Below, piece by piece: positions 1 through 9,795 of a DNA stretch of 9,795 bases. The position numbers and the translations under genes are program-made. The notes below the pieces were generated by a model that worked only from the letters and a program-made list of their open reading frames with translations, was not told the DNA's origin and ran no database searches. Every line of letters begins with the position of its first letter. Positions within the stretch are counted from its first letter, which is position 1. The stretch comes from a virus (lineage: Duplodnaviria > Heunggongvirae > Uroviricota > Caudoviricetes). The stretch lies in IMG/VR virus record IMGVR_UViG_2711768052_000007, positions 1-9,795 of that record. One strand, written 5' to 3'.

Positions 1-564
1 TCAACGACTGCGCTTAGCGTGGCGCTCCCAGTTTTCTTGCTTCGCCTGCGCCGTTTTACGTAGTGCGACGTAACACGCCCCGCTGCCGCCATGATGCGGT
101 AGCGCAGTGCAATATGCCTGAACATCATCAAATTCGGTCAGCCAGCGCGCCACATAGCTGCGGACAATATTGGCATGCGATTTATCATCCCGTCCTTTGC
201 CATGAATAATCAGCACGTTACGCAAACCATCAGCCATGGCTTGTTGAATGAAACTGAACATCATTTTGCGGCACTCTTCCACCGGCTGGCGCAAAAGATT
301 CAGGCTCGCCTGTTGCGGATATTTACCACTGCGCAGCTTATCCAGCACCCCATGTTGCAACCCTTCCCGCCGAAACTCCAGCGGCTGACTTAGTGGGATG
401 ATGTCGAGAAATCCGGTGGTGAGGAAATTATCAAGCTGCAGCGTGTCGATACGCTGCGGCGCACGTTGGTTACGCGTTGGATGCCAGTGGACATCGGTAG
501 CACGTTTCAGCGGCTGGACATCTTCCATGGCGTCAAGAAACAGCGATTTGTCGTCAAGGTTCAT
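1..564 (-). CDS. smrA: Smr-domain protein SmrA (YdaL), probable DNA endonuclease
   Basis: Complete 187-aa ORF (ATG at 564-562, stop at 3-1). The translation matches E. coli SmrA/YdaL as I recall it, including length. SD-like GGAGGATG lies upstream at about 568-575. Confidence 0.85.
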   Translation of the reverse strand: MNLDDKSLFLDAMEDVQPLKRATDVHWHPTRNQRAPQRIDTLQLDNFLTTGFLDIIPLSQPLEFRREGLQHGVLDKLRSGKYPQQASLNLLRQPVEECRKMMFSFIQQAMADGLRNVLIIHGKGRDDKSHANIVRSYVARWLTEFDDVQAYCTALPHHGGSGACYVALRKTAQAKQENWERHAKRSR

Positions 565-1297
565 GTTACATCCTCCCGCAATTAAGAGCGCGATATGATA
601 ACCAGACCGGGTCGGTCCAACAACGTATTACCCAAAATTCCAGTAATAAGTTCCAAATATTGCCGATATTTTAAGCAAAATGCTTATGCATGATTATTCA
701 TTCACGATATTTATAATTAAATGCGCATAACTTATTGAATTTAACCAACAAACATCGCTGCAAATAACGTTAAAAATCGCAAATTAACTACACCATTAAC
801 TACACCGTTCGGTGCACTGTATGCAACAATGCGGAACAAATAGACACAAGCGACGGGCTATACCGTTATCATTTTCCGGCTATCCGCCATGAAGCTGGTG
901 GATGATCACGGATAAACCGTTATGGAAGTCCCCATATCGGCATCATGCCCACCAGCGAGATTAGTTATCTGGTTGCTGATGGGAGGCTGACGAACCTCGA
1001 TGCTAGGGTGCGCAAAACTAGTGAGACCTTTTTTCTCTGCAACAGGCCCATAATTCGCGTTTTCTTTGTCTGCCGTAAGGTGGGGGATTTTTGGCGGATC
1101 CAGCAATGGCGCGGATTTTGTGATTTTTTATAGATAGACCTCATCTATCAATCCCGTGCACACCTTCCCAAAAAAAGTTTTCGAACCTGCGGCGATGAGA
1201 ACAAGGGTAGGCGGGCGGTCCCATAAGCAATGGAGTGTAGGGATTCCGATCCCCCTGGGGGTATTAAACGCCCCACCCTATTTAAATACCGTCTTTT

Positions 1298-1339
1298 TTG
1301 TCACTGGTTGTCACTCTCCGTCACGGTATGTCACCACAA
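1298..1339. repeat. Four GTCAC-containing units phased exactly every 10 bp (candidate integrase arm-type or Xis/AlpA-type binding array)
   Basis: GTCAC occurs at 1300, 1310, 1320 and 1330 (ttGTCACtgg, ttGTCACtct, ccGTCACggt, atGTCACcac), directly 3' of the last island gene. It resembles the lambda Int arm-type consensus (A/C)AGTCACTAT, recalled from memory. Confidence 0.4.
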
Positions 1340-1340
1340 G

Positions 1341-1625
1341 TTAACGTCGTAACCGTTCCGGCTTCTTCCACTGGTAAGTAATTTTTTCTTTCTCCCGGTA
1401 CATCTCTACGCGGCGACGGTATGACAACATCTCCAGAACTCTGGTTCGTATATCGCGCATATCCACGCCGTTAAGCTCAATACCATCACGGCGCATCACC
1501 TCAGCCACTACACGCGCGTAATTTTCGGCTATCACGCTGTCCGGCTGCGTGGCCTCCTGTTTGCCTGTTGTCTGGCTGGCTCCGGTAACGCGGCGAATTA
1601 TTTTGAGCATTTCGGCTTCGGTCAT
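1341..1625 (-). CDS. Hypothetical protein (94 aa) downstream of the small-terminase-like gene
   Basis: ORF with internal ATG at 1625-1623 preceded by GGAGG with about 8 nt spacing. The longer track ORF (to 1715) has no RBS. I do not recognise a family. Confidence 0.5.
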   Translation of the reverse strand: MTEAEMLKIIRRVTGASQTTGKQEATQPDSVIAENYARVVAEVMRRDGIELNGVDMRDIRTRVLEMLSYRRRVEMYREKEKITYQWKKPERLRR

Positions 1626-1770
1626 GGTTATGGCCTCCGTGGTGATGGGAAACAATGCCGTAATTGTGGCGGGTCCTTCTTGGAAAATGAAATACCGGGG
1701 TAGCCATACGCGCAATTCTTAACTGTTTATGAAAATTTTTCGAGTTCCACTCCCGGTTTTTTTATGACCT

Positions 1771-1791
1771 AACCAATTGATTAAATTGGTT
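1771..1791. promoter_or_regulatory. Perfect 8-bp inverted repeat AACCAATT-N5-AATTGGTT (operator-like)
   Basis: Read directly from the sequence, in the 215-bp gap between the terS-like stop (1840) and the next gene start (1625). Confidence 0.3.
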
Positions 1792-1839
1792 TTAAATATC
1801 AAATCAACCGGAAGTCTGACCAGTTGAGGGAAATGATGA

Positions 1840-2301
1840 TCAGGTGTCGTTTTGCCTGATTAATTTACGCTTCTTTTTGTTTTCATTTGTGTGTTTTTTA
1901 AGGCGTTTTAATGTCAGTTCTCGCCCGATCTCAATTCCCTGCGCTCTGCCCCTAGCCTGTGCGATCTCGTCCGGTGAATAACCGTAAATTTCCAGACCTT
2001 TATTAAATTTTTTTTCGTACTCTTGTTTGTCTTCTTCTTCACCAACCATACTCAACATGATTTCACGCGAATGCATAATGCAATCAAGCGGATGAAGTTC
2101 GCCAGTCATACCCAGTTCTTTGAGTCCTTCCTGTCCTCTTACCCAAAAAAGAACATGTCCTAACTGGTAGCGCCCCGGCTTTCCTTTATCTCCTTCAATG
2201 AATGGCAAACCGCGTTTAGTCCATGCCCTGACAGTTGTCCTGTCTACTCCAAATTGATCTGCTATTTCCTGCTGGCTTAAGAAAAATTCTTTTTCACTCA
2301 T
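1840..2301 (-). CDS. Terminase small subunit-like packaging protein (Nu1-type N-terminal winged-HTH, divergent C-terminus)
   Basis: The N-terminus (LSQQEIADQFGVDRTTVRAWTKRGLPFIEGDKGKPGRY) aligns with lambda Nu1 (KKQLADIFGASIRTIQNWQEQGMPVLRGGGKGNEVLY). The track ORF begins at a TTG (2337); the ATG at 2301-2299 (MSEKEFF) matches the Nu1 N-terminus better. The gene lies immediately downstream of a cos-like site. Confidence 0.7.
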   Translation of the reverse strand: MSEKEFFLSQQEIADQFGVDRTTVRAWTKRGLPFIEGDKGKPGRYQLGHVLFWVRGQEGLKELGMTGELHPLDCIMHSREIMLSMVGEEEDKQEYEKKFNKGLEIYGYSPDEIAQARGRAQGIEIGRELTLKRLKKHTNENKKKRKLIRQNDT

Positions 2302-2379
2302 AATGTTACCAATAATTACTGGTTGAATATTAATCAAGTGGTGGTGGTGTACCCTTTCCCGGAAAGCGTCATAAATAGC

Positions 2380-2440
2380 GCTTTTTTGCGCGTCTGCCGC
2401 CCCGTAACCTTTCGGATCGCCGGAAAGGACCCGTAAAAAA
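2380..2440 (-). other. Lambda-type cos site (cosQ-proximal sequence, cosN-like 12-mer, start of cosB)
   Basis: Minus strand reads ACGGGTCCTTTCCGGCGATCCGAAAGGTTACG|GGGCGGCAGACG|CGC...GCGCTATTTATGA. The lambda genome ends and start, as I recall them, read ...ACGGGTCCTTTCCGGTGATCCGACAGGTTACG|GGGCGGCGACCT|CGCGGGTTTTCGCTATTTATGA. The cosN-like 12-mer is at 2391-2402 (plus coordinates). Confidence 0.7.
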
Positions 2441-2456
2441 GCCGGATTTCTCCGGC
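2435..2456 (-). terminator. Putative intrinsic terminator after the 137-aa gene, overlapping the cosQ-proximal region
   Basis: On the minus strand, hairpin GCCGGA-gaaa-TCCGGC is followed by TTTTTT, 7 bp after the stop at 2463. It may instead be part of cos architecture. Confidence 0.35.
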
Positions 2457-2462
2457 CTTGTC

Positions 2463-2876
2463 TCAGATGGTTTTCAGTATGCGATCGATGTCGTCGTCAT
2501 CACCCGGATTTCTTCCATCGTATTCCATGCCACCTGACACTGCTTTGGGGCTGTGCATATCCATAAAGTTTTCAAAGGCTGCAGTAAGCTCCGGCGGAAC
2601 CTTCGGGCGTTCCTGCTCTATGGTCATGTTCAGGATGTCTCTTGCCCCTTCAACATCGATACAAGGAACATTCGCCATTGCACGCAACATCGGCTGATAT
2701 TCGGCTGCTTCATGAAGCGCCATAATCGCATCAGCGCGCGGCTTGTCCTGTTCTTCCAGTTTGTTCAATCGGTGTATGGCTTCGTAGGTTGATAAACCTC
2801 TGTCAGCCATTGCCCGCGCTTCGGCCTTAAATTTACTCGCCAGCGGTAGCGCCATGATCTCTTCATTGATTGCCAT
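2463..2876 (-). CDS. Hypothetical protein (137 aa, acidic C-terminus) between the decoration gene and cos
   Basis: ORF with ATG at 2876-2874 preceded by AGGGGGGA. The track ORF extends to 2930 but that extension overlaps the upstream gene and has no RBS. Family not recognised. Confidence 0.5.
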   Translation of the reverse strand: MAINEEIMALPLASKFKAEARAMADRGLSTYEAIHRLNKLEEQDKPRADAIMALHEAAEYQPMLRAMANVPCIDVEGARDILNMTIEQERPKVPPELTAAFENFMDMHSPKAVSGGMEYDGRNPGDDDDIDRILKTI

Positions 2877-2889
2877 CGTTCCCCCCTGC

Positions 2890-3225
2890 TTATCGTGCCA
2901 GCGGCTGAACGGATACGCCAGAACCCGCAAAGGCAGCGCATTTTTTCGCGTCAGTATCGACGCTCTCGGGCCAGTTAACGACGGCGATATTGAATATCCC
3001 CGTCTTGTAACACTGTGCAGATTTTTGTTTTGCCGTGTCCAGTGGGTAGGAGGTCAGATAAATGGCCTTGCCTGACTCCTGACCGCCCCACGCCTTAAAC
3101 TCGCCGTTCTCCGTCATCATCAGCGGGGTAAGCTCGGGAATAACTCCGGCATCAGCGGCAAAGTGTACCAGCGTAGTGGAAACCTGCTGTGTACCGGACA
3201 ATAATTCAACATATGGAACGCCCAT
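2890..3225 (-). CDS. Head decoration protein (lambda gpD-like)
   Basis: 111 aa. TPLMMTENGEFKAWGG...CYKTGIFNIAVVNWPES...KKCAAFAG aligns with lambda D (TPLMLDTSSRKLVAWDG...FYKSGTFRYEDVLWPEA...KRTAFAG). ATG at 3225 is preceded by GGGGGA. Confidence 0.8.
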   Translation of the reverse strand: MGVPYVELLSGTQQVSTTLVHFAADAGVIPELTPLMMTENGEFKAWGGQESGKAIYLTSYPLDTAKQKSAQCYKTGIFNIAVVNWPESVDTDAKKCAAFAGSGVSVQPLAR

Positions 3226-3236
3226 AAAATCCCCCG

Positions 3237-4292
3237 TTAACCAATTTTTACGGTAACAAATTTGCGGATATCTGCCGGAACCGGCTGTGGTGCGCTGTGC
3301 GTCTGCACGTATTCAATCGACGGATCGCCGCCCTCAATCCAGTTTTTCGGGTAGTACATGTTTCGCGTTGCGCCAGTTCTTACCGCTTCCTGATCCATAA
3401 TCGCGCCATAGGCCACCAGTCCTTTATTGCTGGTATTACCCAGAACAAGCAAATCAGGCTCAAGGAAATATTTTTCCGTTCCGTCGCCGTCAGTGTATTT
3501 ACCGGAATAAACGATAAGGGCCAGATCGCCAAGATAGCCTTTAAAGCTCACCACTTCGCCCAGGTTTTTACACGCCAGCTCTGCGGCGGATTCTGAACCA
3601 CGGGAAAGATCGTACAGTTCACGAAATTTTTTAAAGCTGCGTAACGTGCGCCATACCTCAACGCCCATAATCATGACGTTGGCGGGGCAACCTGCCTGAT
3701 CGGTGTACAGTTCGATGTCATAAATTGGATCGTGCGTTTCCTTGTCAGCCTCTGACCACTTTTTACCTTGTCCCTGCGTAATGATGTTTTTAGTCGGGAT
3801 TTTCCAGTCGATTTCGTATCGATTTATACCTTCGCCTTCAATGATGTTTTTCCCGGTCGTGACTGCATTCACCGCCAGCCATTCCACACGCGCTTTAATG
3901 GAATTTACCTGGCGGCGCATGTTGCCCGTAATCAGGCGCATACGACGGTATGTAGGGTCGTTAAGCTGTGCTGGATCTTCACCAGCCATGCGTATGATGG
4001 TTTTTGATGGATCGATTTCGTGTTTGGGTTTCATGTAGCCAGGGCGGATAGTGCTTGTTTCGTACCCTTTATCTCGCTGAACCTGGCTACCCACCATAGG
4101 CGAACAAAACGCCGACATGGTGACTTCTTCAATATCCAGGGTATCTAACATGATGTCCTGCGTGTTGAAGGTCGCCACGTTCGGGAAAAACAGCGACGTA
4201 AACAGCGGACTAAATTTAAAATCTGGAATATCCTGGCGATTCAGATATGTAAAAAGCTGATGCGTGTTAAGCGCCTGCGCTTTGTCTGTCAT
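3237..4292 (-). CDS. Major capsid protein (lambda gpE-like)
   Basis: 351 aa with conserved blocks shared with lambda E: FKFSPLF, PGYMKPKHE, EDPAQLNDPTYRRMR, VVSFKGYLGDLALIVYSGKY, VLGNT, YPKNW, GDP, SAP. The start ATG overlaps the upstream stop (ATGA). Confidence 0.9.
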   Translation of the reverse strand: MTDKAQALNTHQLFTYLNRQDIPDFKFSPLFTSLFFPNVATFNTQDIMLDTLDIEEVTMSAFCSPMVGSQVQRDKGYETSTIRPGYMKPKHEIDPSKTIIRMAGEDPAQLNDPTYRRMRLITGNMRRQVNSIKARVEWLAVNAVTTGKNIIEGEGINRYEIDWKIPTKNIITQGQGKKWSEADKETHDPIYDIELYTDQAGCPANVMIMGVEVWRTLRSFKKFRELYDLSRGSESAAELACKNLGEVVSFKGYLGDLALIVYSGKYTDGDGTEKYFLEPDLLVLGNTSNKGLVAYGAIMDQEAVRTGATRNMYYPKNWIEGGDPSIEYVQTHSAPQPVPADIRKFVTVKIG

Positions 4293-4498
4293 TGCTCACC
4301 CCCATGAGTCTGATTCATGCCAAGCGCAGCGCGTAAATGGCTGCGTACCATCCAACCAACTGACGGCTTCACCATGCACAACGGATCAAGGCCGACTTTT
4401 TTGCCTGCTTCTGCGTTCTCCTCAAAGCGCGCATTAAGTGCCGCGATAATATCGGGGCTGATGTATACGGATACACCGCCCAGCTTCTGTGTTCCCAT
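4289..4498 (-). CDS. Hypothetical small protein (69 aa), translationally coupled to the capsid gene
   Basis: ATG at 4498-4496 is preceded by AGAGGA, and the stop overlaps the capsid ATG. The upstream part of the track ORF (to 4564) has no RBS. Confidence 0.4.
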   Translation of the reverse strand: MGTQKLGGVSVYISPDIIAALNARFEENAEAGKKVGLDPLCMVKPSVGWMVRSHLRAALGMNQTHGGEQ

Positions 4499-4550
4499 AA
4501 ATGAAATTCCTCTTTGACTAAAAAACAAACATAACGAAAAATCAGTCATG

Positions 4551-4580
4551 ATTTTAATCATCATTGCATTTTTTGCAATG
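4551..4580 (-). promoter_or_regulatory. Putative sigma70-type promoter for the head/packaging operon with an overlapping inverted repeat
   Basis: On the minus strand, -35 TTGCAA (4578-4573), 16-bp spacer, -10 TAAAAT (4556-4551). The 7-bp inverted repeat CATTGCA-N5-TGCAATG (4562-4580) overlaps the -35 and spacer. Confidence 0.3.
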
Positions 4581-4675
4581 CAATTGACTATTATTGCAAA
4601 TCATGAAAGTATAATTCCGCGGTTTTACCTTGTATCGTAGAGTTGTTAGCATCAATCACGTTAACGGCATGAAAT

Positions 4676-4709
4676 CCCCCCGGAACCTCATCCCGGGGGG
4701 ATTTTTTTT
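4676..4709 (+). terminator. Strong plus-strand intrinsic terminator
   Basis: 8-bp GC stem CCCCCCGG/CCGGGGGG (4676-4683 / 4693-4700) with a 9-nt loop, followed by A and T8 (4702-4709). Confidence 0.6.
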
Positions 4710-4713
4710 GCGC

Positions 4714-4741
4714 ACAAAAAAGCCGTGAAAAATCCCGGCTT
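4714..4741 (-). terminator. Minus-strand intrinsic terminator after the SSB-like gene
   Basis: On the minus strand, hairpin AAGCCG-N10-CGGCTT is followed by TTTTTT. It lies about 15 bp downstream of the alternative-frame TAA stop at 4758-4756. Confidence 0.45.
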
Positions 4742-4755
4742 CTGTCACTCGTTGC

Positions 4756-5122
4756 TTAAAACGGTATGTTATCCCCGTACGGATCATCATTTCCCGCCTG
4801 TTGTTTTGCCCTGTTCAGTGCGTCAGTAGCCTGGCCCTGTTGACCTTTTTTGCCGCCCGGGCGCGCCGTTCTGGCCTGTCCACTGGCTTACCTGCATGTT
4901 ACCCGCCACGCTCACAAGTTCGCCTTTCTGGTGCTTTGCCAGTGCGTCGGCCTGTCTGCCAAACGCCAGGACGGATAACCACATCGTCGCCGTTCCGTCA
5001 TCTGCCTGGCTGCACGGCAGGGGAACCGCCATACTCGCCATCGCCATTTGTGTCCCTTTGCTGGTGGTCTTTAACTGCGGGTCAGCCACCAGCCGCCCGT
5101 AAGCCGCTATCTGTGCTGTCAT
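4756..5122 (-). CDS. SSB-like single-stranded DNA-binding protein with an apparent +1 frameshift near an A6 tract
   Basis: The track ORF (4823..5122) shows an SSB-like OB-fold pattern (GRLVADPQL..., WLSVLAFGRQADALAKHQKGELVSVAGNMQVSQWTGQNG versus E. coli SSB [40 protein letters not shown]). The +1 frame downstream of the A6 run (4846-4851) continues to ...AGNDDPYGDNIPF and stops at 4758-4756. IPF is the hallmark C-terminal tip of bacterial SSBs. Confidence 0.5.
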
Positions 5123-5370
5123 GATTCCACCTCTCCGGTTTTAACATTGATGGTTGTCACCTGTTCCGCTTCGGCAATCTCCCGTTCTGTCAGCGTGGCA
5201 AAGTTTGCTGCCGCCGTGGTCATGAATGCGCTTATCAGTTCGGGGTGTGCTTTCGCGTATCCTTCCCCGGCATGGCGGTCTATCGTTCTGATTGCCACCT
5301 TTAAGGCGTGCTCTGTCATGTCTAATGCGCGATATTTTGGCGCTGTCTTATCTCTGGTTTTTCTGGTCAT
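5119..5370 (-). CDS. Hypothetical protein (83 aa) between the origin and the SSB-like gene
   Basis: ORF with ATG at 5370. Its stop overlaps the SSB-like ATG (ATGA). No family recognised. Confidence 0.45.
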   Translation of the reverse strand: MTRKTRDKTAPKYRALDMTEHALKVAIRTIDRHAGEGYAKAHPELISAFMTTAAANFATLTEREIAEAEQVTTINVKTGEVES

Positions 5371-5379
5371 TCCTCACTG

Positions 5380-5573
5380 CTCCCCACTTTTACTACCCAC
5401 TTTTTGAAATTACCCAACGTCTCCCCACTTCTTTTTTTTGTGATTCTAACGTGATGTTTTTCAATGTATTTTTTATTCCCCACTTTTTGGGGTATATACA
5501 GGTGGGAAAGTGGGGAATCGCGTTTCAATTTTGTTAAATTCCCCATACTCCCCACTTTTACTACCCACTTTTT
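5380..5573. repeat. Iteron-type origin of replication candidate
   Basis: An identical 26-bp direct repeat CTCCCCACTTTTACTACCCACTTTTT occurs at 5380-5405 and 5548-5573. The short motif TCCCCACTT occurs at 5381, 5422, 5477 and 5549, with an inverted copy AAGTGGGGA at 5508-5516. An AT-rich spacer lies at 5431-5476. The region is immediately 3' of the Rep-type gene. Confidence 0.6.
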
Positions 5574-6987
5574 ACAGTGGGCGCACGTCATCACCGTCAA
5601 TAGCAATAACGCCATCACCTTCCAGCTTGTACAGCCAGCGCCGGAAGTGTTTCATCTCATACCCCAGCTTTTTCATATCATCGCGCAACAACGGAATTGT
5701 GCATTTATCGCCGCGCTGTGTGCGTGAACGGATACAGCCCCATAGCGCGGCATGATTCTCCGTCTTGTTCCCGGCTTCCTCGATGCGCTCCAGTTCAACG
5801 GGTGGGCGCGGTTTATCCACAACCACCAGCGACGTGATTAACTCCTTGTCAGCGTCGGTAAAAAGCTCCACCACACGTAAATCGTATGCAGCCTCTTTCA
5901 GTTCCTCCGCGTCCTTCATTTTGGTGCAGGAGATAACCAGGGCTTCACTGTCTGCACCTTCACGGCGAATACGGTATTCAGCGTCCAGAGATGCACGAAA
6001 TGCACTGGAACCACGCGCCCCCTTTGTTTCATCCTTGCCGGAATGGTGAACCACCAGCACCGTGGCCCCTGTGCGGCGTTTCAGTTCGTCACATCCACGG
6101 ATAAACGCCCCCATATCCCGCGCGTCATTTTCATCATTACCGCCAAAGCAACGCGCCAGCGTATCAAGAATAATCATGCGTACCGGTTTACCCGTTTCCC
6201 GTTCAACCTGGCGGGAAGCGATGACCATTTCATCAACATCAAGCGGGACTGCCGGAAAAATCGGGCGGTTTACCAGGTACAGATTTTCCACCCGTTCATC
6301 ATTAACGATTTCCCATGCCTTGATACGGCGGGGGACACCAATGCCACCTTCACCGACAACATACATCACCGAACCATGCGCCACCCTGCGGCCTCCCCAG
6401 TGACGGCCAGTGGCAACATGACACGCCCAGGAACACGCGAGGAACGATTTATAGGAACCGCTCGCGCCGTATGTGCTGCACAATGAATTAGCCGGAATCA
6501 CGCCCTTAACGACATAATCAAGCTGTGTGTCGTACCCTGCAGATCCAATGCTCATTGGTAGCGTGGTTTTTCGCTGGCTGTATTGCTCGTCAGTAAGTAT
6601 TTCCCCGCGCTCTGCCTGTTCGCGGATCCGTTGCAGGTAGTCGTGCCAGTTCTCCAGCTTCTGGCTGTGCATTCCATCAGGGTAATAATTCGCATCCCGT
6701 ACACCTGCCGCCGCCAGCTTTTGCCCGATAGCATTAATATTTGACGGCTTGATGTGGCCTGCCTTGTACAGCCGGACACAATAGCGACCATCGTCGATGA
6801 TTTTCAGGTCTGCCAGTTCGTCAAGCTGGCTGTCTCCAAGCCATACGGGTGGCACGTTGTCGCCAGCAAGTCGCCCGTCCTGTTCCTGCCATTGTTTCGC
6901 GTGCGCCCAGGCATCACTACCCGCAAAAATAATGACTTCGGTCATTTTGTCGTGTGGCTGTTTTTTTAAGTTCGGTGCCAGTTTCAT
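5572..6987 (-). CDS. Replication initiator / helicase-type ATPase (RecA-like P-loop NTPase with C-terminal winged-helix)
   Basis: 471 aa with a Walker A-like YGASGSYKSF, then MIILDTLAR and VLVVHHSGKDETKG blocks typical of RepA/DnaB-like satellite and plasmid replication ATPases. The C-terminus looks like a DNA-binding domain. The start ATG overlaps the upstream stop (ATGA). Confidence 0.75.
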   Translation of the reverse strand: MKLAPNLKKQPHDKMTEVIIFAGSDAWAHAKQWQEQDGRLAGDNVPPVWLGDSQLDELADLKIIDDGRYCVRLYKAGHIKPSNINAIGQKLAAAGVRDANYYPDGMHSQKLENWHDYLQRIREQAERGEILTDEQYSQRKTTLPMSIGSAGYDTQLDYVVKGVIPANSLCSTYGASGSYKSFLACSWACHVATGRHWGGRRVAHGSVMYVVGEGGIGVPRRIKAWEIVNDERVENLYLVNRPIFPAVPLDVDEMVIASRQVERETGKPVRMIILDTLARCFGGNDENDARDMGAFIRGCDELKRRTGATVLVVHHSGKDETKGARGSSAFRASLDAEYRIRREGADSEALVISCTKMKDAEELKEAAYDLRVVELFTDADKELITSLVVVDKPRPPVELERIEEAGNKTENHAALWGCIRSRTQRGDKCTIPLLRDDMKKLGYEMKHFRRWLYKLEGDGVIAIDGDDVRPL

Positions 6988-7498: not shown

Positions 7499-7957
7499 GG
7501 CTTACATCCTCCGTGAATTTTCTTCTGTACCGTGCCTCTGCCACATATTCAGCATAGTCCGACGCAATAATAAGAATATCGTTGCCGGTTCCTGAATGTT
7601 CAGCGGTTCCAATTAAAAAACATGCGGCCTTTATCAGGTCATTAACAGCCAGCAACGCATCGCCTGTATCATCCGGTGCGCCATCAAATTCCTGTTTCAG
7701 GGCATTAAAACGATCATCACGCATAACCCCCCCCCATTTTCACAATCAGCAATCAGGATGGCTTTGGCCTCATTCAGTGCCATATCAGCGGTAAGCTGTG
7801 CGTAGGCCAGCGAATGGGGGATTATTGCCCCTGTATACTCCGGCTCTCTGGTAATGTGTTTTTCTGCGGTTGCTGCCGTGCATGAAATATCAATCAGCGC
7901 GTGCATCAGCGTAGTGAGCGCGGCGGCTGCTGCGTCCGGACGTGGGTTATTGCACAT
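7491..7957 (-). pseudogene. Hypothetical protein split into two ORFs at a G9 homopolymer (frameshifted or phase-variable)
   Basis: ATG at 7957-7955 has a strong RBS (AGGAGGT, 5-nt spacer). The frame runs to a stop at 7699-7697 just after the G9 tract (plus-strand C9 at 7727-7735). The 77-aa ORF 7491..7724 continues in the +1 frame, and one extra G would fuse both into about 157 aa. Confidence 0.4.
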
Positions 7958-8249
7958 GGCGCACCTCCTGACGAATACGGGCGGCGAATACAGCGACACA
8001 ACCGGACGGGCAACGGTTACGCGCTTCGCGTTCTGTCCATGCGGTGACGTGGATGATTTGAGATTCTCCGGCACTCAGTGCCAGAAAACGCCACACAAAG
8101 GCCGTTTGTGTGTGCGCTAGGCGTGGGGTATGCTGTGTTCCAGCCATAATCGTTACCTCGTTTAACGGTTTGGTTAGAAGCCCCGTTACTGCTCCAACAG
8201 TGCGGGGCTTCGTCGTTTCAATTGCTGAATTGCATGTATCAGCCCTTGT

Positions 8250-8316
8250 GGTATTCAGATTACATTTTGGTGAATACCATTTCAAGTCTTTTTTGGTATT
8301 CACTTTTGTATTACAC
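8250..8316. promoter_or_regulatory. Operator-like repeats GGTATTCA(C) upstream of the ribbon-helix-helix gene
   Basis: GGTATTCA at 8250-8257; a perfect 9-bp inverted pair GTGAATACC (8270-8278) and GGTATTCAC (8295-8303); a degenerate copy GTATTACAC at 8308-8316. A candidate -10 TATTAAT lies at 8327-8333. Confidence 0.35.
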
Positions 8317-8346
8317 TGCATCCCGTTATTAATCGGAGGTGCAAAC

Positions 8347-8652
8347 ATGTCCACGAGTTCTGTTAACAATAAGTCACAGCAACTGAATGCCAGATTTCCA
8401 CATGAAGTAGTGAGTGGCATTGAGGCATCCCTACAGCCAGGGGAAACTAAAGCGAATTTTATAGTTACGGCTGTACGCGGTGAGATCGCCCGCCGCCAGG
8501 CAGAAGGAAGCGGAGAAAATCCCCTGGTTTCTTCGCTCGATGCACTGGCGCAGGTGGAAAAAATCGGAGTCAAAGCAGCCGAGGAGATCGGGCAACTCGT
8601 CACCGTCGCGCGTGAAGAACTCCAGCGCCGCAAGGCCAAAGAGCAGGAATAG
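8347..8652 (+). CDS. Ribbon-helix-helix (Arc/CopG-like) DNA-binding protein, putative island regulator
   Basis: 101 aa with a strong RBS (GGAGGTG, 5-nt spacer). The N-terminus (QQLNARFPHEVVSGIEASL...ANFIVTAVRGEIARR) fits the beta-strand plus two-helix RHH pattern. It is the only convincing plus-strand gene in the island. Confidence 0.55.
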   Translation: MSTSSVNNKSQQLNARFPHEVVSGIEASLQPGETKANFIVTAVRGEIARRQAEGSGENPLVSSLDALAQVEKIGVKAAEEIGQLVTVAREELQRRKAKEQE

Positions 8653-8656
8653 CCCC

Positions 8657-8675
8657 ACCGGAATTTTTTTCCGGT
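8657..8675. terminator. Hairpin between convergent genes (possible bidirectional terminator)
   Basis: ACCGGAA-TTTTT-TTCCGGT lies 5 bp after the RHH stop and abuts an out-of-frame minus-strand TAA. There is no long U-tract on either side. Confidence 0.3.
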
Positions 8676-9143
8676 TACGCTTTGCCCACCAGCCGCAAAT
8701 GTGGCATTGTTGGTGATGCGTTCAAGTTTGATTTGCCGTAATACCCACTGGCGACCCTTTGCGGTCGCCTTTGTTTTGCCTGTTATCCGGCAATTGTGGC
8801 GCTTCGCCACACGGTTGATATAATCCCACTGCTCAGATTCATTTTTTGCGCAGTAGGTTAATTGTTCGCAAGGGCGCTCCGGCAACGGGGCGCTTTTTGT
8901 TTTTATTAGTTTGTAGAAAACTGACTCAGAGATAATGCTCATATTCTGATTGCCGTCAGGGGGGTAAGTTAAATTTACTCCCTTTTCATCAAGCATCTGC
9001 AACGCTCTGGCGTTAATAATATTGGTTTCACTCCCGCCAATAAGGCCGGAAATAACCGGAATAATTTCAGCGAAATTTTGCAGATTCTGGTTTTCAGGCC
9101 GAACGAAGCCCCGCCCCTGTACAGGCGTATATCCAGTATTCAT
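8675..9143 (-). CDS. Hypothetical protein with a weak Bro-N/Ant-like motif; C-terminal frame unresolved
   Basis: ATG at 9143. The first 150 residues or so look protein-like, and ISESVFYKLIKTKSAP resembles the SESGLYxLIxRSRKPEA motif of Bro-N/Ant-type proteins. The in-frame ORF has no stop until 7947 and runs antisense through the RHH gene; a TAA in the +1 frame at 8677-8675 is the likely true end. Confidence 0.4.
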
Positions 9144-9195: not shown

Positions 9196-9384
9196 TTAGT
9201 GAACTGCCTCGCGGCTGTCCTTCCATGCCAGAACTTCGGATAAAGACCAGCCAACGGAACGACCACCGAGTTTACGCCGTGATGGGAATTGTCCAGTCTT
9301 CTCCAGGCGATACCGACATGAGCGGCTCAGGCCTGTAAGTTGCTGACATTCTTTTTCACGTATAAAGCGATCTGTGCTTAACAC
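9196..9384 (-). CDS. alpA: AlpA-family (Xis-like HTH) transcriptional regulator
   Basis: The C-terminal 62 aa (VLSTDRFIREKECQQLTGLSRSCRYRLEKTGQFPSRRKLGGRSVGWSLSEVLAWKDSRE) matches the AlpA pattern. A GTG start at 9384-9382 is preceded by AAGGGGGA. The track ORF's upstream 36 codons are low-complexity and lack an RBS. Confidence 0.7.
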   Translation of the reverse strand: MLSTDRFIREKECQQLTGLSRSCRYRLEKTGQFPSRRKLGGRSVGWSLSEVLAWKDSREAVH

Positions 9385-9680
9385 AATTCCCCCTTTGTTG
9401 TTTCTTAAAGAGTCATTGGGTGGATTATTGGGTTGGGTTGTGTCGGATTGTGTCAGGGTGTTTATGGAATGGCAAACACTGGTGGCGGTCATTTTACAGA
9501 AGTGGGGGTAGTGAGAATAAAAATCCTTTTAATTCATTATGATGTAAAGGCATAAAATTCTGTTTTTACGCCTTTTTTACATGTTTTTAAGAGTGATTCG
9601 CCAATGTACAAAAAGCCAGTAAAACGACTGAAAATCAACTTTTTAGGGTGTCAGTCAGATGATAATCAAGTTTGTTCCAG

Positions 9681-9730: not shown

Positions 9731-9795
9731 TTCTAAAAAATCGCAAAAAAAATTATATTTCTCTGGCTATTGGCAGTGTGGTTACGTTTTCGTGA

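Follow-up and report, generated by a model that had tools for sequence, protein, structure and literature searches.

The minus strand of the window, the 9,795-nucleotide stretch of viral DNA analyzed here, carries in succession a small gene, genes for an E-type capsid protein and a D-type decoration protein, a gene termed X, a cos site resembling that of lambda, a gene whose product is Nu1-like at its N-terminus, and a final small gene. This arrangement raises the question of what kind of element joins lambda-type head genes to a cos site in this order and why it keeps a capsid gene of its own. Profile matches and cos alignments placed all these features on the minus strand as described in a preliminary description of the sequence. 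In addition, none of the ORFs in the window matched portal, TerL, protease, tail, or lysis families in Pfam or PHROGs, and the complete islands agree, which bears out the statement in that description that portal, TerL, and protease are missing. We are confident that the whole is best explained as the late module, serving packaging, of an RppC-type island within the EcCICFT073 family of classical Gram-negative PICIs, with Rpp redirection and a satellite-specific cassette of shell genes. The coordinates of the features are listed in Table 1.

Table 1. Features of the island in the window (coordinates are window positions).
Feature	Position	Strand	Basis
Attachment-site core, 26-bp direct repeat CGGTGTAGTTAATGGTGTAGTTAATT (minus-strand reading)	782..807	.	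smrA-side island end
Last island gene, 94 aa, phrog_1561	1341..1625	-	phrog_1561 E=1e-49
Terminator-like hairpin just downstream of rppC	1804..1827	-	overlaps published reverse primer for rppC cloning
rppC (redirecting phage packaging protein C), 153 aa	1840..2301	-	100% identity over 153 aa to PDB 6HLK/6HN7
Proposed Rpp-binding site 'R3-PICI', bp 48-65 from cohesive end; contains ACACCACCACCAC	2338..2355	-	position from PMC9026076
12-nt cohesive-end sequence within cosN, GGGCGGCAGACG	2391..2402	-	alignments with lambda, HK225, PhiR12_1, CFT073-like island
cosQ-like heptamer GGGTCCT	2426..2432	-	lambda right-end match; blastn matches to lambdoid phage cos regions
Terminator-like hairpin GGCCGGA-GAAA-UCCGGC then U6, between X stop codon and cosQ	2435..2458	-	fold
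X, 137 aa, homolog of lambda Nu3/gpC C-terminal scaffold domain ('mini-scaffold')	2463..2876	-	phrog_1999
Head decoration protein, lambda gpD family, 111 aa	2890..3225	-	PF02924 E=1e-14; phrog_49
Major capsid protein, lambda gpE family, 351 aa, full length	3237..4292	-	PF03864 E=2.5e-50
Small gene, 69 aa, phrog_3255, first of capsid cassette	4289..4498	-	phrog_3255 E=1.9e-25
ssb, frameshifted	4823..5122	-	PF00436; comparison with L128
Iteron-type direct repeats TTTTACTACCCACTTTTT and variants, downstream of helicase gene; probable ori	5361..5574	.	repeats and position
Replication initiator/helicase, RepA-type, AAA_25	5572..6987	-	PF13481 E=3e-44; phrog_2850
alpA, activator gene typical of Gram-negative PICIs	9196..9384	-	PF05930 E=9e-18
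Integrase, last 13 codons and stop (rest past window edge)	9753..9794	-	...NVTTLPIAREI* = integrase C-terminus of L001

The island is about 10.3 kb in size, and its contents include int, alpA, a RepA helicase gene, an ori, and ssb. The 26-mer att repeat occurs as a single copy in the window, and a complete island (L128) is bracketed by the same 26-mer at 1193, beside int, and at 11495, beside smrA. In the protein collection, an identical RppC is encoded on five contigs, of which four come from E. coli assemblies and one from a sequencing-run assembly, all with the layout abgR / int ... last gene / smrA and no further genes. Past the window edge, these complete copies thus supply the integrase and contain no portal or terL gene, and abgR and smrA form the flanks. 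The island, which is of the RppC-bearing type published as EcCIEC2733.1 or 'PICI-C', is integrated between abgR and smrA. The hallmarks of a PICI were found: an att-bounded element of about 10 to 15 kb with an integrase at one end, alpA adjoining int in the same orientation, an own replication initiator with a candidate ori just downstream, and the absence of a complete virion, lysis, or tail gene set. The iterons are the probable ori because their position agrees with the published rule that places the ori of a PICI immediately 3' of its replication gene (PMC6092414). Compared with L128, ssb has lost 55 bp, leaving 99 aa instead of 140 and removing the acidic C-terminal tail, and with this frameshifted gene the window's copy of the island might be impaired. 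Helper-dependent induction, packaging, and high-frequency transfer have been demonstrated for EcCICFT073 only (PMC6092414).

The lambda head-gene families and the lambda-like cosQ and cosN could also be read as a decayed lambdoid prophage in which E, D, and cos survived by chance together with part of a TerS gene. This reading is ruled out, and we give it next to no probability, on three grounds: the one-strand order E-D-X-cos-rpp is not derivable by deletion from the lambda order cos-Nu1-A-W-B-C/Nu3-D-E; the element has exact att repeats and its own int, alpA, and RepA/ori in a unit of about 10 kb conserved in many genomes; and its genes are under purifying selection. The earlier view that the locus is a satellite island rather than a deleted prophage therefore holds.

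The gene directly downstream of cos was previously taken for a Nu1-like small terminase. Its product is instead RppC, a mimic and captor of TerS that lacks the TerL-binding C-terminal half of Nu1. The N-terminal wHTH of RppC mimics the DNA-binding domain of TerS, and its C-terminal coiled-coil serves for dimerization. The protein is 30% identical to lambda Nu1 over 47 aa, and the likeness stops at residue ~53. Among the three profile searches proposed earlier, those for the capsid and decoration families were positive, but PF07471 (Nu1-type small terminase) scored only 18.6 bits on RppC against a cut-off of 30 and covered the HTH only. A full-length Nu1-type small terminase was thus rejected, as the C-terminal half for oligomerization and gpA binding was not matched. 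In contrast, the corresponding protein of the L001 island is 37% identical to Nu1 across 178 residues. Identity to the crystallized RppC shows the wHTH and the coiled-coil dimerization domain without a TerL-binding domain, and the gene directly follows a cos with cosQ and cosN but without a phage cosB, as expected of an rpp gene. Furthermore, the published primers for cloning rppC of EC2733.1 match exactly at 2338-2357 and 1806-1826, and rppC starts, as in published PICI-C, at bp 102 counted from the cohesive end. It is therefore very likely, judging from the compared rppC, primers, and cos spacing, that the window's island is EcCIEC2733.1 / 'PICI-C' itself or an allele of it. The last island gene was found at 63 of 80 loci (dN/dS 0.25-0.28) and showed 80-90% identity in all nine PICI contigs with the same cosN variant, including those without E and D; as a partner of the packaging module formed by cos and TerS or Rpp, this gene is conserved.

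The flank from cosQ to cosN equals the lambda right end except at two positions. The cohesive end of lambda is GGGCGGCGACCT, and 4 of its 12 bases differ from that of the island; lambda may therefore not be the natural helper of the island. Past the cosN-proximal segment, where cosB lies in lambda, no similarity to lambda appeared in the alignments. The position of the proposed Rpp-binding site follows the cos analysis of PICI-C (Murialdo & Feiss 2022, PMC9026076). Upstream of cosQ, the hairpin after the X stop codon (-18.3 kcal/mol, z = -2.6) is conserved in L001 and marks the end of the capsid cassette. As the preliminary description stated, the island must obtain portal, protease, TerL, and tails from a lambdoid helper of the cos type.

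The Rpp mechanism and the structure of the RppC-TerS complex have been published (PMC6739421), and Rpp in the EcCICFT073 family binds helper TerS and diverts packaging to the island cos (PMC6739421). By analogy with these close relatives, for which the mechanism has been shown, a lambdoid helper would activate alpA in the present island, which would then excise and replicate by means of its own RepA and ori. The RppC dimer would capture the N-terminal DNA-binding domain of helper TerS (Nu1), and the complex would no longer recognize the phage cosB but would bind the island site beside the lambda-type cosN. Helper TerL would therefore cut island concatemers and package them into heads and tails built by the helper, and packaging of the helper itself would be blocked.

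Next, we consider the capsid cassette. The E protein matched PF03864 with 171.9 bits (cut-off, 22.9) over residues 26-349, shows 43% identity to lambda gpE from end to end and 91.4% identity to PDB 3BQW, and matched lambda capsid structures (7VI9 and others) with E=3.6e-80. The D protein matched PF02924 with 55.1 bits (cut-off, 29.1) and is 35% identical to gpD; its PDB homologs are gpD and SHP. X and lambda Nu3 residues 117-200 share phrog_1999 (E=1.6e-58 and E=2.7e-26, respectively), BLASTP aligned them collinearly at about 23% identity, and a protein with three tandem Nu3-C motifs (P0042) is intermediate between them. These comparisons make X, which has no counterpart of the first 116 residues of Nu3, a homolog of the last ~85 residues common to Nu3 and gpC, with a putative scaffold role. 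The stop codon of the small gene overlaps the E start codon, and this gene lies upstream of E at all 80 related loci. The E, D, and X genes are under purifying selection (dN/dS 0.11-0.30; 0.11-0.14 for E, 0.13-0.18 for D, and 0.24-0.30 for X), and dN/dS of the small gene is 0.18-0.29. The capsid and decoration homologs are not truncated remains, with E full length and both genes under selection. All 80 close E homologs in IMG/VR have a PICI context, with no homolog of lambda A or C near any of them, and the E lineage, which occurs in islands only, shows at most 46.5% identity to any phage capsid in the collection searched. Together, the small gene, E, D, and the Nu3-like X form a cassette of lambda-type shell genes whose lineage is specific to satellites and which selection keeps intact. 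In the one laboratory helper pair tested the cassette was dispensable (PMC6092414), a term with which its strong conservation fits poorly. About one in ten complete E. coli genomes has islands of this kind with such a set of capsid, decoration, and scaffold-domain genes, and a published survey found a capsid gene in 21 of 29 reference GN-PICIs. Many sister islands sharing cos and the last-gene module lack E and D altogether.

One possible use of the cassette is that the island builds its own shell from E and D on the Nu3-like X around the portal and protease of the helper, giving satellite-specific or smaller capsids, as an intermediate between classical and capsid-forming PICIs. The cassette does encode a shell protein together with its matching decoration protein and a protein with a scaffold domain, all full length and under purifying selection; the distance of the island-only E lineage from phage capsids suggests a dedicated function rather than recent passive capture; and the Pasteurella PICI PmCI172, which has a capsid homolog, makes small capsids (PMC6092414). 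However, when the capsid (c1499) and decoration (c1500) genes of EcCICFT073 were reported in 2018 by Fillol-Salom et al. (PMC6092414), deletion of either did not relieve interference with lambda, and EcCICFT073 DNA packaged by lambda was all phage sized (PMC6092414), so that the earlier proposal of an own shell or altered capsid size has no experimental support. PICI capsid genes have also been published as unnecessary for transfer, the sister islands do without E and D, and X is without the N-terminal part of Nu3. We consider this use unlikely.

Alternatively, the cassette may be an interference or decoy device, in which E, together with X, joins the head proteins of the helper in assembly or titrates them, or a spare capsid gene for insertions into helper E. 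Ccm of SaPIbov5, a capsid homolog, occupies pentamer positions and reshapes helper capsids (PMC8569155), helper-embedded PICIs have been published that disrupt the helper E gene and carry their own, and a related island (L212) is inserted within a lambda-like portal gene. On the other hand, the EcCICFT073 deletions left lambda interference in place, although Rpp may mask such an effect (PMC6092414), the present island is chromosomal and not inside a helper gene, and co-assembly is uncertain at 43% identity to gpE. These functions are likewise improbable. The cassette could also be a self-consistent, satellite-owned shell kit that yields satellite or mixed heads on the helper portal with natural helpers rather than in the lambda and phi80 laboratory pairs. 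We think this rather doubtful; if true, the kit would be the missing intermediate between classical PICIs, which take whole virions, and capsid-forming PICIs, which take only tails.

As a classical, RppC-type PICI, the island can be compared with known systems. The preliminary description left open whether the arrangement had been described; it is already in the literature (EcCICFT073, 2018; RppC island, 2019; PICI-C, 2022). EcCIEC2733.1 / 'PICI-C' (Fillol-Salom et al. 2019, Murialdo & Feiss 2022) has the same RppC, primer matches, and cos-to-rpp spacing, with no difference in the compared module; the 55-bp ssb deletion of the window copy is relative to other copies. The prototype EcCICFT073 shares int, alpA, the replication module with ori, capsid c1499, decoration c1500, cos, and rpp. 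It is mobilized by lambda and phi80 in full-size heads and carries RppA, which is 44% identical to RppC as published, in place of the RppC of the present island. L001, an island of the CFT073 lineage, keeps the lambda cohesive end and has a full-length Nu1 homolog in place of Rpp. Compared with the lambda head genes, the gene order is reversed, X is shortened, and there is no protease domain. SaPIbov5, a cos-type staphylococcal island, similarly has a helper-type cos and a homolog of the helper major capsid protein without portal or terminase, and its Ccm has been shown to form pentamers and to turn prolate capsids into isometric ones; unlike in SaPIbov5, the capsid gene of the window has decoration and scaffold-domain genes of its own beside it. 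Capsid-forming PICIs (EcCIEDL933 type) have the same int, alpA, and rep backbone and their own capsid protein, but they add portal, protease, head-tail connectors, HNH, TerS, and TerL and steal tails only. None of these additions is in the window's island, and portal, protease, connectors, TerS, and TerL are also absent from the complete copies, consistent with the earlier distinction from that class. The separation from P4 satellites was probably also correct. P4 is likewise a small integrative satellite with a cos of its helper's type, an AlpA-like regulator, and an Icd-like gene, but the present island has a lambdoid rather than a P2 helper type and a lambda-type cos, would redirect packaging via Rpp, and has a RepA-type AAA_25 helicase in place of the alpha primase. 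No ORF was annotated as Sid, Psu, or Delta in Pfam or PHROGs, which may not include profiles for these three.

Altogether, the element type, an RppC-type phage satellite of E. coli, is already known from the literature, except for the purpose of its own capsid genes. The newly seen features are the homology of X to the Nu3/gpC scaffold domain, the purifying selection on E, D, and X, the island-only E lineage, and the divergence of the cohesive end from that of lambda. Rpp redirection of lambda-type packaging was first found in the family to which the element belongs, and crystal structures exist for two proteins of the element or for nearly identical ones. Its cassette is selected for and has no close counterpart in the phages of the collection, yet it is free of phenotype in the single helper pair tested. 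An answer to why satellites keep this cassette would clarify the relationship between classical and capsid-forming PICIs.

All island genes of the window lie on the minus strand, and the head module at 1341-4564 noticed in a preliminary description was confirmed. A capsid gene of the lambda gpE type (E), a gpD-type decoration gene (D), a third gene (X), a cos site and a gene resembling a small terminase gene (terS) were found at this place, and profile searches recovered the expected families for both E and D. E, D and X, together with a 69-aa gene, are referred to here as the capsid cassette.

Features of the head and packaging module, in window coordinates
Feature	Position	Strand	Evidence
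69-aa gene	4289-4498	-	phrog_3255
Major capsid gene (E), lambda E-type, full length	3237-4292	-	PF03864, E=2.5e-50; 43% identity to gpE across 327 residues
Decoration gene (D), gpD-type	2890-3225	-	PF02924, E=1e-14; 35% identity to gpD
Gene X	2463-2876	-	phrog_1999, E=1.6e-58
Terminator-like hairpin between X and cos	2435-2458	-	predicted
cos	cosQ 2432-2426; 12-nt cohesive end 2402-2391	-	match to lambda right end
153-aa gene (rppC), 3' of cos	1840-2301	-	100% identity to RppC
Second terminator-like hairpin	between 153-aa gene and 94-aa gene		predicted
94-aa gene, conserved, last in module	1341-1625	-	phrog_1561

The 153-aa protein was identical to RppC (redirecting phage packaging protein C; PDB 6HLK and 6HN7), and the published primers for cloning rppC from strain EC2733.1 matched the window exactly. 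Counted from the cohesive end, the start codon of rpp is at bp 102, the value given for PICI-C, the published name of the RppC island EcCIEC2733.1 (Murialdo and Feiss 2022, PMC9026076). The likeness of this protein to Nu1, the lambda TerS, was confined to 47 N-terminal residues and fell below the Pfam threshold; thus, the protein is TerS-like but is no small terminase, and the initial label of Nu1-like small terminase was replaced. True small terminases do occur in related islands: that of L001, an island of the CFT073 lineage, is 180 aa long and shows 37% identity to Nu1 along 178 residues. Nu1 homologs of the L001 type were present in 38 of 80 related loci, and RppA/B-like genes in 18. Rpp proteins of E. 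coli phage-inducible chromosomal islands (PICIs) form dimers through a C-terminal coiled coil, and their N-terminal winged HTH takes the place of one DNA-binding domain of TerS in a TerS-Rpp2-TerS complex, which no longer recognizes the phage cos, binds the island cos and is needed for island packaging (Fillol-Salom et al. 2019, PMC6739421). Redirection of packaging through Rpp has been shown for RppA of EcCICFT073, the prototype classical Gram-negative PICI, and structurally for RppC-TerS, and the island in the window would act in the same way. The element is close to certain to be an RppC-type classical PICI. The preliminary interpretation was partly right: a satellite that borrows helper parts was upheld, the terminase was wrongly identified, and capsid redirection is unsupported.

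The cos segment, TTTACGGGTCCTTTCCGG(C)GATCCGA(A)AGGTTACG joined to GGGCGGC, equals the lambda right end plus the start of the left end, save for the two bracketed bases, and matched cos regions of lambdoid phages in blastn searches. Judged by sequence, the cos site of the module is genuine. Its cohesive end, GGGCGGCAGACG, differs from that of lambda, GGGCGGCGACCT, at 4 of 12 positions. An exact 18-mer of this cosN variant in a cos context was found in IMG/VR only in nine PICI-sized contigs (L008, L011, L027, L036, L061, L077, L080, L098, and L114), each of which encodes a lambda Nu1 homolog with 36-55% identity. Matches to a 15-mer of the variant were mostly due to chance, so the result rests on the cos-context filter and the repeat with the 18-mer. 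No full-size phage or candidate helper with the GGGCGGCAGACG variant was seen in IMG/VR, where absence is weak evidence. In L011, a PICI-like contig, the cos sequence occurs twice in inverted orientation, at 9628-9645 (+) and 10581-10598 (-), with the Nu1-like terS gene between the two copies.

No ORF of the window matched portal, large terminase, protease, tail or lysis families. The window starts in the chromosomal smrA gene and stops within the final 13 codons of the integrase gene of the island, and the whole element was visible in five contigs of the protein collection that encode an identical 153-aa protein (four E. coli assemblies and one sequencing-run assembly). The complete copies have the order abgR, int, alpA, small genes, RepA helicase, ssb, small gene, E, D, X, 153-aa gene, 94-aa gene and smrA, and, as the preliminary description had stated for the window, they lack portal, TerL and protease genes. 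Head or tail genes just outside the window, as in an ordinary prophage, were ruled out by these five copies and by the att-bounded element of ~10.3 kb, which is delimited by a 26-bp direct repeat. Window positions 1-4878 were 99.8-99.9% identical to four abgR-smrA copies. At a sixth place, the module is unchanged and accompanied by another integrase at another site. The 26-bp att core (782-807) is a tandem duplication of GGTGTAGTTAAT, and the following region of about 530 bp up to the last island gene (808-1340) contained no recognizable gene or RNA family. A tRNA/tmRNA scan and Rfam searches at gathering and permissive thresholds detected no tRNA att target and no P4-type immunity RNA in the window. 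Readings of the island as a decayed prophage, a capsid-forming PICI (cf-PICI) or P4 were considered and rejected.

Two further features of the window were examined. Compared with copies that are otherwise 99.8% identical, the ssb gene (4823-5122) has lost 55 bp between GCCAGAACGG direct repeats, with the deletion junction near 4864-4878. The resulting frameshift shortens the protein from 140 to 99 aa, and the conserved acidic tail at its C-terminus is missing; replication of this island copy may be impaired, or the deletion may come from an assembly error. A 398-aa ORF (7947-9143, minus strand) is antisense to a ylcI/ynfO-like gene (coding part ~8347-8652, plus strand) and ends as an Icd-like protein. 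A 396-aa ORF of L001 (13647-14837) keeps the first ~140 residues, which matched no Pfam or PHROG family and are without PGAP annotation. The ORF may represent the P4 eta/'Bro zone' described for islands of this kind.

Profile searches identified X as a homolog of the C-terminal domain common to two lambda proteins, the scaffold Nu3 and the protease gpC. The family phrog_1999 was matched by residues 117-200 of lambda Nu3 (E=2.7e-26) as well as by X. The BLASTP alignment of X with Nu3 was weak and collinear, and an exhaustive search recovered a bridging 195-aa protein with three tandem copies of the motif, which was 47% identical to Nu3 residues 115-176. Given this homology, the cassette encodes a shell, a decoration protein and a scaffold domain, whose genes stand in the reverse of the lambda order. 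A word-indexed homolog search with X returned only close E. coli relatives, named 'phage head-tail connector protein' by NCBI; in view of the Nu3 evidence, this name was rejected as probably wrong. X, the small upstream gene and the last gene had no match in NCBIfam or Pfam, and PDB sequence searches with X, lambda Nu3 and the last gene gave no matches.

The lengths of E, D and X were identical between the window and two compared islands, and dN/dS ratios against these islands, at dS of 0.3-0.6, were 0.11-0.14 for E, 0.13-0.18 for D and 0.24-0.30 for X. A set of 50,697 phage records yielded 415 matches to E, all of them below 60% identity (best, 46.5%). IMG/VR contained 80 E loci at 89-95% identity, every one in a PICI context and on contigs almost all shorter than 15 kb, and a homolog of lambda A or C occurred within 10 kb in none of them. 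By these comparisons, the E lineage is a satellite lineage. One of the 80 loci (L212; 853-1892 and 10001-13113) sits inside a lambda-like portal gene: its E-D-X island lies ~8 kb from lambda W (100% identity) and from a truncated copy of the lambda portal gene (99%). L212 looks like a helper-embedded PICI inserted into the portal gene.

Capsid and decoration genes in classical PICIs are already known, and the possible novelty raised initially did not hold, the arrangement having been published for islands of the EcCICFT073 type. Deletion of the capsid or decoration gene of EcCICFT073 did not restore lambda plaque formation, and DNA packaged after lambda induction was all phage-sized (Fillol-Salom et al., PMC6092414), findings restated in Dokland's review. 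Redirection of the capsid by the island shell is thus unsupported, and the published knock-outs count against an essential role of the cassette with lambda. The cf-PICI paper sets 'classical' islands against capsid-forming ones, and the helper-embedded PICI paper (PMC10111431) counts a capsid gene in 21 of the 29 reference Gram-negative PICIs and states that transfer does not require it. With PDB 3BQW, a 'putative capsid protein of prophage', the capsid protein of the window shared 91.4% identity, and no later literature assigning a function to the cassette was found. The cassette may form its own or a mixed shell with natural helpers, may interfere with or titrate helper head proteins by analogy with Ccm (PMC8569155), or may serve as a spare capsid gene for relatives inserting into helper head genes.

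Part of the 1341-4564 region was matched by 1,157 of 5,426 complete E. coli genomes. In a sample taken at even intervals along the ranking, about half of these matches covered E-D-X, giving an estimate of ~600 genomes. The exact RppC version is rare in complete E. coli genomes, where no place covers 80% of the window. The 94-aa last gene (phrog_1561) showed 80-90% identity across islands whose capsid cassettes, TerS/Rpp types and replication modules differ, and its product is, in this comparison, the protein of the packaging end that varies least. The capsid cassette is optional and modular: E and D are absent from sister islands in which ssb, cos and the last gene are the same. An island of E. 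coli PI7 at the abgR-smrA site (L002) shares the int, alpA, RepA and ssb backbone of the window, and its E-D-X-cos-rpp segment is replaced (7339-10280) by a ClpP-type protease/major-capsid fusion (PF00574 + PF25209) and a DUF1441 protein. This replacement on a common backbone indicates that the late module is exchanged as a cassette, and the swap probably matches a different helper type.
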